From an uncultured Candidatus Peribacteria bacterium (GTDB taxonomy: Bacteria > Patescibacteriota > Gracilibacteria > Absconditabacterales > Absconditicoccaceae), in the NCBI GenBank assembly GCA_964463255.1, contig CAYXBC010000024.1, positions 5,587 through 69,586 of the forward strand: a stretch of DNA of 64,000 nt. The letters run 5' to 3'. Positions within the stretch are counted from its first letter, which is position 1, and the number at the start of each line of letters is the position of its first letter. The translations under genes and the position numbers were made by a program. Shown in pieces: positions 16,756 to 20,715 of this stretch. A model generated the notes under the pieces. The model was not told the DNA's origin. It did no database searches and worked only from the letters and a program-made list of their open reading frames with translations.

Positions 16756-18654
16756 TTACATCCTTTCCAAAAATACCATGCCGATGAGTTCCATCGCCTG
16801 TTTGAGGGTATCACGAGTCTTTTTGAGAAGTGAGATTCTTGCATGTTTGAGTGCTTCATTCTCCACTAATATCTTGGCATGCGCATAATAACTATTGACC
16901 AACTGAGCGAGATCGAAACAATATTTTGCGATATAATGAGGAGCGAGATCTTCTTTGGCTTTCAGCACCAAATCATCGAATCCGCTGATCTTTTTAACCA
17001 ATGCGAATTCACTCTCCTCCTGGAGCAAATCATAGTCCACTGCTGGTGTATCGAATGCTCATGCGGCATCTATAATACTCTGCATCCTGGCTCCGGTATA
17101 GAGAATATATGCTCAGGTCTCCCCTTGCATATCCAATGCTTCGTCTAGATCAAAGACAATGTCTTTGGTGATATCTCCTCTGATGAGAAAAAATCTCAAT
17201 GCAGACACTGCCATCGCTTCGGCGACGTCATCCAATCGAGTATCAAGTTTTCCGGGATTTCTCTCTTTGGTCTCGAAATATGCTTTGGAATGTAACATCT
17301 GGAGCATCTCATCTATAGTCACGGTCCGTCATTTTCTGCTAGCGAAGGGCAGTCTTTTTTCTGTCGTTTCTTCTGGACTGAGGGTATATCAGAGCTTAAT
17401 TAATGTAGAAGGTGTCAGATAGACGACACCATAGCCAAGCGGAAGATAGCTCTTATGTTTCTGAGTATATTCCAATAAGGTGAATGCAGATTTGACGATG
17501 GTCTGTGCTGGTATCTGTCTATTGTCGATGACGGTGATTGCGGTGTCATAGTTTCAGAAATGATGTTTGGTCAATTTCTCCTCGGGATGGGCGTTTGTGG
17601 TGAAAATCGTCTCCCCTCTCGGGTCCTCAATTAGAATATCATAGCCAAAATCTTTGGAGAGATAGCCGAGTTTCCGTAATGCGAATGCGATATCTTTGGC
17701 GATATAGGTCGCTACACCGTCGGATTTGATCAGAATCTGGTATTGTTTCTCTTCTTTTGCATATTCGGGTAATGAGGAGAGATCCAGTACTCGACAACCT
17801 TTAGCATCGCCTTCCTCGACGAATTTTATGACGCCTTTGTCTCTGAGGAGATCTATCGCTTCTGCGAAGAATTTAATATGCAGGATATCCGTCTCCCATG
17901 CAACTGCATCGAAAAATGCATTCATCCTCCGACAGGTTCTGATCTGCTCAATAGCACATCTTCTGGTATAGTCGAAATGGAGTTTCTTGAGTTGTTCGTC
18001 CGTACCTTCCTCGATCTTGAGTAAGGTCTGGGACAGAAGCTGTTTGAATTTTGGGTCTTCATCCTGTTTCCTCATTTGTTCGTAGATCTTGCCACAATAG
18101 TGATCGTATTTTTTGTCGGTATCCAACGCATATCCGTAATAGAGATGTCCTACGATATTGTACCCGACATTGACTCCGCTATCGTCGCCGTAATTGAAGG
18201 CGTGCACGTCGTATCCGAGTCTCTCATGCATCCTGATGATGCTATCTCCTATACAGACATTCCTCGCTTGACCGATATGGAGCGGTTTATTGGGATTGGC
18301 ATTCATATATTCGACCAAGACTTTCGTCTTGGCATTTTGGAGTCCGGATTCTGGATTTTTGGTGTCGGGAGAAAAAAAATGTTCTATAAAAGTTTTCTTA
18401 TTGATATGGGCATTGAGATAGCCACCTATAGCCTCAAATTTGTCGAACTCCGGCGATATCATGGTCTGTGCCAATTCCTGCGCTATCATGGGCGGAGCTT
18501 TTTTGAGTTGCTTGGATAAGGTAAAACACGGGAATGCTAAATCACCCGGGATATTTTCCGGCGGGATCTCTACCATCGCCAGGATTTCCTTCACCTCGAG
18601 ACCGGTATGTTTAGCCAAGAGTTGGGCGAATTGTTCTTTATATCTTCCTATCAT
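16756..18654 (-). CDS. argS: arginyl-tRNA synthetase
   Basis: Pieces 17554..18654, 17113..17322 and 16756..17040 are in one frame across TGA, and the gaps were traced. PLHIGQARN class I signature region and a C-terminal DALR-like anticodon-binding region. TAA at 16756. Confidence 0.9.
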
Positions 18655-18760
18655 TATCTTTCGCTATACAATAAAACCATTGAGCAGCAATCATCGCTCC
18701 TCTACGGAATATACTATACAGTTGTAGATAGTTATCAAGGCAAAAAGAGGAAGACGAATT

Positions 18761-19117
18761 TCTAATTTTCAATTTCTAACCTTGCCTGCGGCAGGCAGGT
18801 TTCTAATGTAGGATTTGCTACAATGAACTATTGTATCTTACAATAGTGCATAAGTAGACACTACCTTCATCCATCATCCATCATCCATCATCCAAAATTA
18901 ATTATAGTCTAACATCCATCATTCAAAATTAATTAAGGTCCATCATCCAAAATTGAAAATTGATGGTTGAGAATTGAAAAATTGACTGTGGCAGACAGAT
19001 ATAGTAAAATAATCTAGTACTTTTTCCTAGACTGCTTCGTTCCCTTCCGAACAGGCAGGTAAACTCGCAATGACAGAGGTAATAATGAATTTAGAGAATT
19101 AAGAATTAGAAAATTAT
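18761..19117. repeat. composite intergenic repeat element, copy B
   Basis: Contains the ccttgcctgcggcaggcagg hairpin, the palindrome ctattgtatcttacaatag (18828-18846), (catc)n tracts and aattaaggtccatcatccaaaatt. Confidence 0.7.
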
Positions 19118-19121
19118 CTTT

Positions 19122-19913
19122 TTAGTATTCTCAGAGGATTTTGAAAAACACGGTATTTTCACGCAGCTGAGCTCTGGTTTCCTCATCGAGTCTTCCATCC
19201 AAATCTAGCCGGAAATAATAGGTGAATCAGCTTTTCTGGGTTGGGATGCTTTCAAGCTTTGTTATGTTTATATTATGATTTGCTAATATATTCAAGCATT
19301 TCAATAATGATCACGGTTTGTCTTGCATCTCAAATAGGACGGTTGTTTTGTTTTTTGGCAGGATAGGGACATCGATATGTTTTTTGGCAATCACAAAGAA
19401 TCTTGTCGTATTGTGGTCTTGATCCTGTATATGTGATTTTAGTACATTGAGATTATATATCTGCCCTGCCATCGCTGAAGCTATGCTTGCTATACCGGAT
19501 TCATCGCTTTGCGCCACGAACCTTGCCGACTGTGCAGTATCATTGTGTATCACTGGTTCTATATCATGTTCTTTCAAGAAATCCTGACATTGTGCCAGCG
19601 CTTGGATATGAGAATACGCTTTTTTGATCTTGGAAATATCTGTCTCTTTAGACAATAGACAATGGTTGACCTTAAGCTCCGTTTCTCAGATTATCTGGCA
19701 GTCATACTCCAAAAATTTCTTGAAGTTTTCGTGGATGGATCCCGCATAAGAATTTTCCATAGGAAGCACTCCTATACCATCTTCTGATATATTTTTCCAC
19801 ACGGTAGCGAAACTCTCTACTCATTCAATTTCCATATCCTGCATTTTGTCGGCTATCATCTGTGCGACTATAGATGAATATGCTCACAATATTCCTTGAT
19901 AATAGATTTTCAT
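19122..19913 (-). CDS. pheA: prephenate dehydratase (PDT plus ACT domain)
   Basis: MKIYYQGIL-G-AYSS N-terminus. ACT-like QDKP-G-SLLKCLNILANHNINITKLESIPT. All pieces are in one frame and the gaps were traced. TAA at 19122. Confidence 0.85.
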
Positions 19914-19951
19914 GTCATGTAGCTCAAAGGATAAAAATGGATTAAAAAAAA

Positions 19952-20078
19952 CCTCCGGAAAGATGGGAGGGGTTGTTGCTGTTTTTTGGTATATACTAAA
20001 CAACCCCTGTTATCTACAGAAGGCAAAAAAGTTCTTTACAGAGCGTTTAGTAATGCACATATCTATATATATTATCAT
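19952..20078 (-). promoter_or_regulatory. candidate Phe leader peptide plus terminator/antiterminator attenuator upstream of pheA
   Basis: Minus-strand mini-ORF 20078..20010, MIIYIDMCITKRSVKNFFAFCR-TAA. Next comes AACAGGGGTTGTT (20011-19999), which pairs with AACAACCCCT (19977-19968). That arm overlaps the terminator stem CCTCC/GGAGG (19970-19952), which is followed by T8, about 30 nt before the pheA ATG. Confidence 0.45.
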
Positions 20079-20223
20079 AAATCACTGAAGGAATGTCTAT
20101 AGAAACAGGAAATAAAATCAAGCAAAAATATTAATTTTCCTGGGGCATCTCTTATGAAGGTCGAAGAGTTTGTGGAATAAAAAAAATCCCTTGGCATGAT
20201 GTCAGAGATTTTTCTTAGAGAAA

Positions 20224-20643
20224 TTATTCTTCTGAGATAGGCGTCTGTCTCGACTGTTTGATTTTGCTCGTGTGTTTTTTGTCGGTGATGCGTTCTTCGC
20301 GTTGGGATGCTGGCAGGTTGGTAGCTATCCTCTCCTTTGGCTCTTCGAGTGCCTGGGTCAGGAGCTCTTTGAAATGATGGATAACTTTTTGTTTGTTCGC
20401 ATTTTGATAACGTTCTTCCTGACAGGTCATAATCAAAATTCCTTCCTCATGATGGACTCTATGCCCTCCAAGCTCGATAAGTCTCGCTTTCTGCTGGGGA
20501 GTGAGGTGCTCTGAATCGTGGATATTAAAATAGAGCTCCGCTTTGGTTTCCCTCTTATTTACATTCTGTCCCCCATGTCCTCCGCTCTTGGCAAAATGGA
20601 AATGCAGCTCGTGCTCTACTATATTCTTGATAATATCTTCCAT
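20224..20643 (-). CDS. arfB: ArfB-like peptidyl-tRNA hydrolase (class I release factor GGQ domain protein)
   Basis: 139 aa with SGGHGGQNVNK and a basic C-terminal tail. No internal TGA. Confidence 0.8.
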   Translation of the reverse strand: MEDIIKNIVEHELHFHFAKSGGHGGQNVNKRETKAELYFNIHDSEHLTPQQKARLIELGGHRVHHEEGILIMTCQEERYQNANKQKVIHHFKELLTQALEEPKERIATNLPASQREERITDKKHTSKIKQSRQTPISEE

Positions 20644-20715
20644 GGTTTGTTACTAATGATAAAAGGTGGAGAGTTGAGAGTGGAGAGTTGTCCCCTTCGA
20701 GAATAAGTGAATGTT

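Follow-up and report, generated by a model that had tools for sequence, protein, structure and literature searches.

Transcription attenuation by a leader peptide requires a ribosome that follows closely behind RNA polymerase. The attenuator of E. coli pheL-pheA was reportedly described by Zurawski in 1978. Genomes of Absconditabacteria-type bacteria are about 1.3 Mb in size; UGA is read as glycine, Shine-Dalgarno sites are not used, and the organisms do not grow in culture on their own. Known cases of leader-peptide attenuation come mostly from Proteobacteria and some from Actinobacteria and Firmicutes (PMC2965389, PMC3082878), and no published report of it in the SR1/Absconditabacteria-type group was found in the literature. 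Among the closest described systems is E. coli pheL-pheA (RF01859; PMC3082878), in which pheA is preceded by a short leader ORF containing Phe codons and, about 30 nt before the gene, by a U-run terminator. Outside the Proteobacteria, the AroR leader before the aroF operon of Corynebacterium glutamicum is a proven attenuator with Phe-Tyr-Phe only, which responds to Phe limitation (Neshat et al. 2014, as related in PMC11802643).

The window (the whole stretch of DNA that was analysed, 64,000 nt) contains a pheA gene on the minus strand (19122..19913), which encodes a prephenate/arogenate dehydratase of 263 aa with PDT and ACT domains (Pfam, 3e-50 and 1e-10, respectively). The N-terminus of the protein, MKIYYQG, is conserved in orthologs. 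The host uses genetic code 25 (TGA = Gly) of the SR1/Absconditabacteria type; six in-frame TGA codons are found in pheA, and a table 11 reading of the region was rejected, as pheA and its neighbours are intact only under code 25. No other Phe-pathway gene was found in the genome (91% complete), so that pheA is a pathway orphan, and Phe, the amino acid of the leader described below, matches this sole gene. The upstream gene, arfB (20224..20643, minus strand), encodes an ArfB-like stand-alone GGQ/RF-1 domain protein of 139 aa (Pfam RF-1, 7e-17) and, in over 20 species of the genus, is located directly before argS. The pheA region, 1.57 kb long, was recently inserted between arfB and argS, with repeat-rich DNA on its flanks. 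Unrelated inserts and low-complexity repeats gather at this junction across the genus, and a Pfam search of the other inserts at the site gave no matches.

The element upstream of pheA is likely to be a transcription attenuator of the leader-peptide, ribosome-mediated type, through which the supply of Phe-tRNA governs how much pheA is transcribed. The sequence-only reading had pointed to a minus-strand ORF of 22 codons with three Phe codons close to its stop, and all of these elements are present in the sequence: the ORF (20010..20078) begins with ATG 20078, ends with UAA (20012-20010), and reads MIIYIDMCITKRSVKNFFAFCR. The extent of the ORF stands as described earlier; translation, however, probably begins not at the 22-codon start but at the internal ATG 20060, giving a 16-codon form (minus strand, MCITKRSVKNFFAFCR), because only this ATG has a TTTAY signal and sits downstream of the promoter-like site (see below). 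The regulatory codons UUU UUU GCC UUC occupy 20019..20030 on the minus strand. The Phe codons are UUU (20030-20028), UUU (20027-20025), and UUC (20021-20019), GCC separates the first two from the third, and UGU AGA and the stop follow. The ORF contains no TGA codon. Its GCCUUC (20024-20019) doubles as segment 1, the distal partner of GGAGGU. Among intergenic mini-ORFs, a comparable run of Phe codons near the stop was counted in 5 of the 918 sense ones and in 12 of the 898 antisense ones (0.5–1.3%). The leader is not a decayed remnant of tyrA or a neighbouring gene, as tblastn showed no similarity to tyrA or any other neighbour, nor is it a copy of a genomic repeat, as no second copy was present in the genome or the family. 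An adjoining ORF of 41 codons contains seven Phe codons.

The best sigma70-like candidate for a leader promoter, TAGACA-17-GATAAT (20071..20099, minus strand), has 10/12 matches to the consensus; canonical promoters of this genome are TTGACA-17-TATAAT. If functional, it would place the transcription start at about 20064, 4 nt before ATG 20060. A start-proximal translation signal, TTTAT (20077..20081, minus strand), is located at −21 from ATG 20060, and that of pheA, also TTTAT and in the consensus form (19931..19935, minus strand), at −22, inside CATTTTTATCC. In the host genome, TTTAY is found at −25..−18 in 43% of gene starts vs 5% of other intergenic ATGs. Its spacing to the ATG is fixed, and that to −10 boxes is variable (5 to >60 nt), which rules out TTTAY as a promoter giving pheA its own transcription start; judged by this spacing, it is a 5′UTR signal. 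A sequence scan of the 30-nt gap between U8 and the pheA ATG found no sigma70-like site. Because the gap is this short, carries no such site, and TTTAY is a 5′UTR signal, pheA must be transcribed through the attenuator element, and the leader and pheA appear to be co-transcribed with no separate pheA promoter. The genome avoids Shine-Dalgarno motifs (see also PMC10783764). The GGAGG of the element is thus not a ribosome-binding site, and there is no start codon at the corresponding distance. The combination of U8 and T5 was also considered as a generic T-rich start-proximal signal, which is partly true, for TTTAT at −22 only; U8 does not belong to it because it lies outside the −25..−18 window and closes a hairpin.

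Two pairings compete downstream of the regulatory codons. In the 2:3 antiterminator (19968..20008, minus strand), AGGGGUUGUU (20008-19999) pairs with AACAACCCCU (19977-19968) over 10 bp with a 21-nt loop. This helix has a folding energy of −13 to −15 kcal/mol (−14.9 with z = −4.2), was equalled in 0 of 200 shuffles, and can be extended by pairing of AGAU (20015-20012) with AUCU (19964-19961). The 3:4 terminator (19944..19970, minus strand) consists of CCUCC (19970-19966), a 9-nt loop, GGAGG (19956-19952), and U8 (19951-19944), the last 30 nt from the pheA ATG (19913), which confirms the earlier description of CCTCC-N9-GGAGG and T8 at about this distance. The antiterminator arm overlaps the 5′ arm of the terminator by 3 nt. 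When no ribosome is present, GGAGGU pairs with GCCUUC (20024-20019, the Ala-Phe codons), and the whole folds as a single nested 87-nt hairpin abutting U8 (−23.3 kcal/mol, z = −3.3). The arms thus compete as had been proposed, but they do not form a simple mutually exclusive pair, since this third, nested state would also terminate. In addition, the terminator/hairpin scan gave a 1:2 hairpin, CUUCUGU-AGAUA-ACAGGGG (20004..20022, minus strand; 7 bp including 2 G-U), which spans the stop codon and, by analogy with the trp and pheA leaders, may be a pause hairpin.

The host genome uses terminators made of a hairpin and a T-run, and the 164 counted have a median of −10 kcal/mol, stems of 6–9 bp, and loops of 4–5 nt. 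The local CCUCC/GGAGG stem, with 5 bp and a 9-nt loop, falls within their weakest decile; stems of 5 bp were observed in 13/164 and a 9-nt loop in 1/164. By the standards of this genome the local terminator is marginal, a real weakness that counts against the attenuator. An unstable 5-bp stem had been named in advance as unfavourable to the proposal: the local stem is weak, at −6.1 to −6.8 kcal/mol, and the nested hairpin has −23.3 kcal/mol. On average, 5′ regulatory terminators are weaker than 3′ terminators (PMC2965389).

In the proposed mechanism, transcription would enter from upstream of the mini-ORF, either through read-through from arfB or from a start at the TAGACA-17-GATAAT site, in which case the mRNA would be almost leaderless. 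A ribosome would translate the leader of 16 or 22 codons while RNA polymerase approaches U8. If the ribosome is missing or lags behind, GCCUUC (segment 1) would pair with GGAGGU (segment 4) around the 2:3 helix, and the resulting long hairpin at U8 would terminate transcription. When Phe-tRNA is scarce, the ribosome would stall with UUU UUU in the A-site, covering segment 1 and leaving segment 2 free; the 10-bp 2:3 antiterminator would then sequester CCU of the terminator 5′ arm, GGAGG would be single-stranded, and polymerase would read through into pheA. With plentiful Phe-tRNA, the ribosome would reach the last codons or UAA and cover segment 2, so that CCUCC:GGAGG could form and transcription would end at U8. 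That the cell translates the leader, terminates at U8, and responds to Phe is what we infer.

The element was folded with the stretch covered by a ribosome masked, at successive ribosome positions. The probability that GGAGG is paired was 0.97 without a ribosome, 0.96–0.99 with AAG, before the Phe codons, in the A-site, and 0.99 for a ribosome on UAA or within the last one to three codons. It was 0.21–0.30 when UUU 20030 or UUU 20027 was in the A-site (12-nt mask), and 0.22 for UUU 20030 with a 14-nt mask. True pairing with CCUCC was just 0.07–0.10 with the A-site on the UUU codons, where the 2:3 antiterminator was the dominant structure. Clear antitermination in the model came from only the first two of the three Phe codons. 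At the simulated positions, the ribosome logic of the sequence-only reading is borne out: a ribosome at the stop codon masks the antiterminator arm and leaves the terminator, and one at UUU UUU frees the arm.

The full ribosome-masking fold pipeline, which was designed after the pheA-leader case had been seen, was run genome-wide. The pheA leader was the sole match in 628 upstream regions, for any amino acid. Under strict criteria, the full architecture was found in 0 of 628 antisense regions and in 0 of 1,255 controls overall. With loosened criteria, Phe-type false matches occurred in approximately 0.15–0.5% of regions, none of them before a cognate gene, and even with such loose definitions the joint probability of the architecture arising by chance was estimated at about 0.1–0.5%.

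Compared with E. coli pheL-pheA, the locus shares the short Phe-codon leader ORF upstream of pheA, the alternative 1:2, 2:3, and 3:4 pairings with the stop codon at the edge of segment 2, the U-run terminator about 30 nt before pheA, a distance of about 80 nt from the regulatory codons to the U-run, and the predicted read-through when a ribosome stalls at the Phe codons. It differs in having no sequence or covariance-model similarity; the Phe_leader model (RF01859) gave no match even at E ≤ 10. The leader has three Phe codons, in contrast to seven in pheL, and fails the operational pheL screen of at least five in-frame Phe codons within 60 nt (PMC3082878). Unlike in E. coli, the regulated enzyme consists of PDT and ACT without a chorismate mutase domain and is a pathway orphan, the host uses no Shine-Dalgarno sites and reads UGA as Gly, and the terminator is far weaker, the ribosome-free state being the nested 1:4 + 2:3 hairpin. 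The C. glutamicum aroR leader resembles the pheA leader as an aromatic attenuator outside the Proteobacteria with only three regulatory residues, but it belongs to another phylum, precedes a DAHP synthase gene, and has been validated experimentally, whereas the pheA leader is a computational prediction.

Conservation was searched for at several levels. None of the 29 other species of the genus has pheA, and a search of 140 family genomes found no DNA homolog of the leader. The organism is also represented by contigs in ERR3687823, ERZ27300181 and ERZ1426829, each a run or an assembly. In other samples, contigs of the species show 100% identity, and a contig with a 77%-identical PheA begins 6 nt before the ATG of that gene. 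A metagenome scan yielded one distant match. A comparable leader was found in 0/19 family pheA loci, 0/8 other family tyrA loci, and 0/7 further metagenomic loci. Two relatives with code 25, G142 and L098, have leaders of the same design. In G142, from the same GTDB family, the leader (L032:188-347) encodes MKTTTISSQSFFFSYFYYSRGK before tyrA-pheA; its terminator (−18.9 kcal/mol, T8) lies 25 nt before the operon, and the same three-state behaviour was observed under masks. The L098 leader, on an unbinned Logan contig (L098:2848-3000), encodes the homologous peptide MTTNLSSQSYFFFSYFFYL, and the associated TyrA is 75% identical. The two leader regions are 84% identical, with the consensus ..SSQS[FY]FFFSYF[FY]Y.. 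and GCTAC..GGAAGGTAGC.

The pheA leader shares with these two the genetic code, the regulation of the pheA family, the three-state topology, regulatory codons that form the distal partner of the terminator 3′ arm, a run of T7–T8 located 25–38 nt before the first gene, and a length of 16–22 codons. The G142 and L098 leaders, however, sit before tyrA instead of directly before pheA, carry 7–8 aromatic codons (Phe and Tyr) instead of three for Phe only, and have robust terminators (−12 to −19 kcal/mol) instead of a marginal one. The regulatory codons track the operon content, with Phe only before pheA and Phe plus Tyr before tyrA-pheA. By MAFFT and blastn-short, the pheA leader could not be aligned to the other two beyond T-runs, and the PheA phylogeny, built to ask whether the leaders share descent or arose independently, is a polytomy. 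Such attenuators had been called mainly proteobacterial and unexpected in a CPR-like genome; the design is not confined to Proteobacteria and recurs in the code-25 group. The three leaders are small and free of TGA codons, which makes them amenable to reporter or cell-free assays.

Other explanations were weighed against these observations. The nested 87-nt hairpin and U8 could be a constitutive, leaky terminator or an insulator that ends transcription of arfB or of a tiny ORF or sRNA; read-through would then give pheA a low, constant expression, and T-rich sequence would account for the Phe codons as a by-product. The single hairpin of −23.3 kcal/mol that the ribosome-free element forms against U8 fits this, as does the distance of 59 nt from the mini-ORF stop to the U-run, which is typical of ordinary 3′ terminators here. 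The genome has other strong terminators ≤45 nt from the following co-directional start (8/110), Phe codons are common in T-rich sequence such as the neighbouring 41-codon ORF, and the region is young inserted DNA beside repeats. We consider the explanation unlikely, however. Right after its stop, arfB already has its own terminator-like hairpin (20178..20217, minus strand; AUCUCU/AGGGAU core with A:U pairs, U8 20186-20179, −12 kcal/mol, z = −3.2), about 40 nt past the stop and thus at the usual position for a 3′ terminator in this genome. The pheA-leader hairpin, 273 nt away, was therefore rejected as the arfB terminator, and at that range from gene stops the counts of hairpins with T-runs are at chance level. 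A leaky terminator also leaves unexplained that the terminator pairing collapses specifically with a ribosome on the Phe codons, that the combination is unique among 1,256 regions, and that the layout recurs in relatives, where the codons before tyrA-pheA are for Phe/Tyr.

It is improbable that the locus is a functionless assemblage of accidental features in fast-evolving junk DNA, although the arfB-argS junction is an insertion hot spot where unrelated inserts and low-complexity repeats pile up. By chance, about 10% of the T-runs in the genome close a hairpin with an energy of −6 kcal/mol or lower, gene starts are generally preceded by an excess of T-runs, and there is no conservation to show selection. 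Chance accounts poorly, however, for a joint probability as low as that given above, for a 10-bp helix and a composite hairpin that are each significantly more stable than shuffles, and for the presence of the genome's start signal at the ORF start, and it leaves pheA with no other route to transcription. A switch that uses the same hairpins and senses by other means than the ribosome (a T-box-like tRNA sensor, a riboswitch, or protein-mediated antitermination) is hardly credible. Alternative hairpins before an amino-acid gene are also a hallmark of T-boxes and of TRAP- and PyrR-type systems, but the Rfam scan of 18600-20700 at E ≤ 10 gave only four noise matches at 17–19 bits, with no T-box or other cis-regulatory family. 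The leader is too short and has no specifier loop or T-box-like conserved sequence, the relatives' leaders are far under the threshold for every family (PyrR, 31 bits vs 54), and the ribosome fully explains the dependence on codon position.

Phe-sensing, ribosome-mediated attenuation of pheA, as put forward in the sequence-only reading, is thus the best explanation. It is supported by the sequence elements, the fold behaviour under masks, the uniqueness in the genome, the lack of a pheA promoter, and the leaders of the two code-25 relatives. Besides the marginal local terminator, its weak points are that the leader has just three Phe codons, that the pheA insertion is recent and missing from the rest of the genus, which leaves no sequence conservation or covariation to draw on, and that pheA is an orphan, which makes the benefit of Phe feedback questionable. 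It would be a classical mechanism at work in a new lineage. More tentatively, and with considerable doubt, we suggest that the capture of an orphan pheA at arfB-argS came first, that the Phe-only attenuator then either evolved de novo or was altered past recognition, and that leaders in this lineage, which lacks Shine-Dalgarno sites and reads UGA as Gly, run on leaderless or nearly leaderless mRNAs. Should this be correct, transcription and translation would be tightly coupled in ultra-reduced bacteria of the episymbiont type, and the content of regulatory codons would be quickly re-tuned to that of the operon (Phe vs Phe and Tyr).

If the element is a Phe-sensing attenuator, Absconditabacteria-type bacteria would keep transcription-translation coupling and sense the amino-acid supply via tRNA charging. 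Even an orphan prephenate/arogenate dehydratase would be worth regulating, which hints that Phe may be made from a host-derived precursor, and attenuators would be gained or rebuilt over short evolutionary timescales.

The genome to which the window belongs (1.285 Mb, 91% complete) reads TGA as glycine, and long ORFs were restored by translation table 25 only, including a 1522-aa protein with 72 TGA codons, ArgRS, and TopA. The pheA gene (19913..19122, minus strand) encodes a prephenate/arogenate dehydratase of 263 aa (PDT and ACT domains) and has six TGA = Gly codons. It is located 310 nt downstream of arfB (20643..20224, minus strand), which encodes an ArfB-like GGQ protein.

A Phe leader-peptide attenuator had been proposed in this spacer by the sequence-only reading, and the underlying observation was confirmed. 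The 22-codon ORF was found at 20078..20010 on the minus strand (MIIYIDMCITKRSVKNFFAFCR), with the three Phe codons UUU 20030, UUU 20027, and UUC 20021 ahead of the UAA stop (20012-20010). The two arms described as pairing form a 10-bp helix of AGGGGUUGUU (20008-19999) with AACAACCCCU (19977-19968), for which folding together with a 4-bp extension gave −14.9 kcal/mol (z = −4.2). As claimed, the second arm overlaps the terminator: 3 nt are shared between the helix and CCUCC (19970-19966), which pairs with GGAGG (19956-19952) across a 9-nt loop (−6.8 kcal/mol by folding). U8 (19951-19944) comes next, and 30 nt separate it from the pheA ATG. Two structures were absent from that description. Whole-leader folding placed a 1:2 hairpin, CUUCUGU/ACAGGGG, at 20022-20004 (minus strand), with the stop codon inside its span, and in the ribosome-free minimum free energy state GGAGGU was paired with GCCUUC of the Ala-Phe codons (20024-20019) around the 10-bp helix. 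This nested hairpin of 87 nt ends at U8 and has a folding energy of −23.3 kcal/mol (z = −3.3; 0/200 shuffles as stable).

To model ribosome positions, the RNA was masked up to 12, 14, or 16 nt past each A-site codon, and the probability of GGAGG being paired was computed for polymerase at the U-run. The probability was 0.97 with no ribosome and 0.96-0.99 when AAG, located two codons ahead of the Phe codons, was in the A-site (12-14-nt mask), the partner being the distal GCCUUC in both cases. For UUU 20030 or UUU 20027 in the A-site and a 12-nt mask it was 0.21-0.30, CCUCC pairing accounting for only 0.07-0.10; with the 14-nt mask it dipped to 0.22 at UUU 20030, and with the 16-nt mask the dip was one codon further upstream. 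On the last codons or UAA it was 0.99, with the local CCUCC as the partner, so that the masking check suggested along with the original claim gave the expected local terminator at the stop codon and its loss at the Phe codons. Under this model, the antiterminated state would thus arise only when the ribosome stalls on the tandem Phe codons. A ribosome stalled there would leave the terminator arm GGAGG mostly unpaired (antitermination), one at the last codons or UAA would allow the local CCUCC:GGAGG terminator, and with no ribosome GGAGGU would join the distal GCCUUC in the nested hairpin ending at U8. The Phe codons lie 79 nt from the U-run, a spacing similar to that in classical leaders.

Start signals and promoters were surveyed in the whole genome using our own code-25 ORF calls. 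SD motifs were depleted ahead of starts (GGAG at 2% of starts vs 4% background), in agreement with the classification of Absconditabacteria as SD-scarce and lacking a conserved CCUCC anti-SD (PMC10783764), and GGAGG was therefore rejected as a ribosome binding site. The motif TTTAY (approximate consensus CATTTTTATC, followed by another T 9 nt further on) begins at −25..−18 (mode −22/−21) of 43% of gene starts vs 5% of other intergenic ATGs, and was also present ahead of 30% of operon-internal genes. Canonical TTGACA-17-TATAAT promoters were found in 105 strong instances. The distance from TTTAY to the −10 box varied (5 to over 60 nt downstream) while that to the ATG was fixed; the motif was thus rejected as a promoter and assigned as a 5'UTR translation-start signal, of which no published description was found in the literature examined. 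Ahead of pheA, the motif occurs in its consensus form, CATTTTTATCC, at −22 (TTTAT at 19931-19935, minus strand). Within the mini-ORF, TTTAT (20077-20081, minus strand) is located at −21 of an internal ATG at 20060, and no TTTAY was in range of the first ATG (20078). The best promoter-like site in the leader, TAGACA-17-GATAAT (20099..20071, minus strand; 10/12 consensus matches), would start transcription ~4 nt before ATG 20060. Because of this predicted start and the TTTAT, the 16-codon version from ATG 20060 (MCITKRSVKNFFAFCR) is more likely to be the leader peptide. No sigma70-like site was found between U8 and the pheA ATG, and transcription of pheA is therefore taken to run through the hairpin and U8.

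The main rival explanation is a constitutive or leaky terminator, next to which the Phe codons are coincidental; we consider it unlikely. Intrinsic terminators are used by this genome: a closing hairpin with an energy of at most −6 kcal/mol was present at 41-48% of T-runs of at least 6 located at most 120 nt past a same-strand stop, vs ~10% of those elsewhere. In these terminators (n = 164), stems of 6-9 bp, loops of 4-5 nt, and T7-T8 are typical, and the median energy is −10 kcal/mol. The local stem of the candidate (5 bp, 9-nt loop) falls in their weakest decile, and 5' terminators have a lower average strength than 3' terminators (PMC2965389). Directly after its stop, arfB has its own hairpin and U8 (20217-20178, minus strand; −12 kcal/mol, z = −3.2), and a second element is therefore superfluous for ending arfB.

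That the parts came together by chance is considerably less probable. Phe runs, defined as at least three Phe in four codons close to the stop, occurred in 5/918 sense and 12/898 antisense intergenic mini-ORFs. A search pipeline required a T-run 10-90 nt before a gene, a terminator hairpin forming with the ribosome at the stop, and a clearly more stable alternative that abolishes the terminator when the ribosome occupies the first codon in a run for the same amino acid. For any amino acid, the leader of pheA was the sole match among 628 upstream regions, and 628 antisense controls gave 0 matches. When loosened (any start codon, T5 or longer, weaker energies, two codons), the pipeline gave Phe-type false matches in about 0.15-0.5% of regions and, for any amino acid, none before a cognate gene. 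As the pipeline was written after the case had been seen, the likelihood ratio was taken as roughly 100 rather than 1000. A switch operating without the ribosome is the least probable alternative, given hardly any weight.

In the GTDB genus of the window's genome, pheA was absent from 29/29 other species; in the family, it was present in 25/140 genomes at ≤52% identity, and no DNA homolog of the 310-nt leader was found. The genes arfB and argS are neighbours throughout the genus, in many cases with 7-60 nt between them. In the window's genome, the 1.57 kb made up of pheA and its flanks (310 nt and 467 nt) is therefore an insertion, and other species carry other inserts at this hot spot. Gaps at this junction (window 18655-20223; loci L056-L082) range from 7 nt to 1.3 kb across the genus, and many contain short tandem repeats. 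About five species have an opposite-strand ORF of ~105-130 aa (..YGRLHLLRARY..SIRIGK.SRLI..YSPNHY) and two have an ORF of ~385 aa, both with no Pfam match. In the repeat-rich flank downstream of pheA (18655-19121, minus strand), a GTCATTGCGAG element is accompanied by tandem repeats (GGATGATGG..., CAATTTTCAATT...). Palindromes like GTCATTGCGAG...CTCGCAATGAC were also seen in other species' arfB-argS gaps and in the tyrA-pheA gap of G142, a code-25 genome of the same family (locus L032, about 1385-1480), and look like a REP/MITE-type element common to the family. The pheA flanks held no remnants of neighbour genes.

Same-species contigs from other samples were 100% identical, a contig with a 77%-identical PheA starts 6 nt before its ATG, and a metagenome scan added nothing. 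A Phe-run ORF with a terminator was found upstream of 0/19 family pheA genes. Strong hairpin TAGGGAACGGTTTTAAGCCGTTCCCTA, with neither U-run nor leader ORF, is located ~60 nt ahead of another Gracilibacteria-type pheA (L094:2740-2790). Several family members have tyrA followed by pheA, and the pipeline gave one striking match among the family tyrA upstream regions, in G142, whose PheA is ~50% identical to the window's and among the closest. Its leader MKTTTISSQSFFFSYFYYSRGK (within L032:116-350) has seven aromatic codons in eight. The 5' arm of the terminator, CUACUUUCCU, is exactly complementary to the final codons of this leader plus the stop (AGGAAAGUAG), and the terminator is a −18.9 kcal/mol hairpin with T8, 25 nt ahead of the tyrA ATG. 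The ribosome scan gave the same three states: 0.97 paired through the distal arm of regulatory codons, 0.18-0.47 with the A-site on UUU UUU AGC UAC UUU, and the local terminator (0.91) beyond. Judging from a −10-like box close to the ATG, this leader mRNA may be leaderless. A homologous leader with the same arms, MTTNLSSQSYFFFSYFFYL (within L098:2848-3003), precedes tyrA-pheA on an unbinned Logan contig (TyrA 75% identical; leader regions of the two loci 84% identical). The two are very convincing Phe/Tyr leader-peptide attenuators with strong terminators; neither the 8 other family tyrA loci nor the 7 further metagenomic pheA/tyrA loci had such a leader. The window's leader could not be aligned to them and the PheA tree did not resolve, so a shared design is claimed, but not common descent.

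The window's leader is of the same mechanistic type as the classical pheL-pheA and trpL attenuators (PMC3082878, PMC1183508). It does not belong to the enterobacterial pheL family: no Rfam Phe_leader match was obtained, it has 3 Phe codons as opposed to 5 or more, and the chorismate mutase domain is missing from the window's PheA. In the validated AroR leader of C. glutamicum, three regulatory codons (Phe-Tyr-Phe) are enough (PMC11802643). Overall, a ribosome-mediated Phe-sensing attenuator of pheA is, on computational grounds, the probable reading. It would be a known attenuator type in a code-25, SD-less, reduced-genome lineage, where no published report was found; the literature search likewise yielded no link between CPR/Patescibacteria and leader-peptide attenuation.

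The pheA gene is a pathway orphan in this genome. CM_2 chorismate mutase, chorismate synthase, class I/II aminotransferase, and TyrA were not found, and the EPSP_synthase family (which includes MurA) had no match, while all or nearly all of 14 control genomes matched in the same searches. The tyrA-pheA pairs of the family are present without the shikimate pathway, which suggests the use of imported prephenate or arogenate. Judging from the PDT/ADT family, arogenate as the substrate would give Phe directly, with no aminotransferase needed. Unless the enzyme acts on arogenate, the benefit of Phe control is doubtful, which counts against the attenuator model; if it does, Phe-responsive control would be meaningful for an organism importing the precursor.
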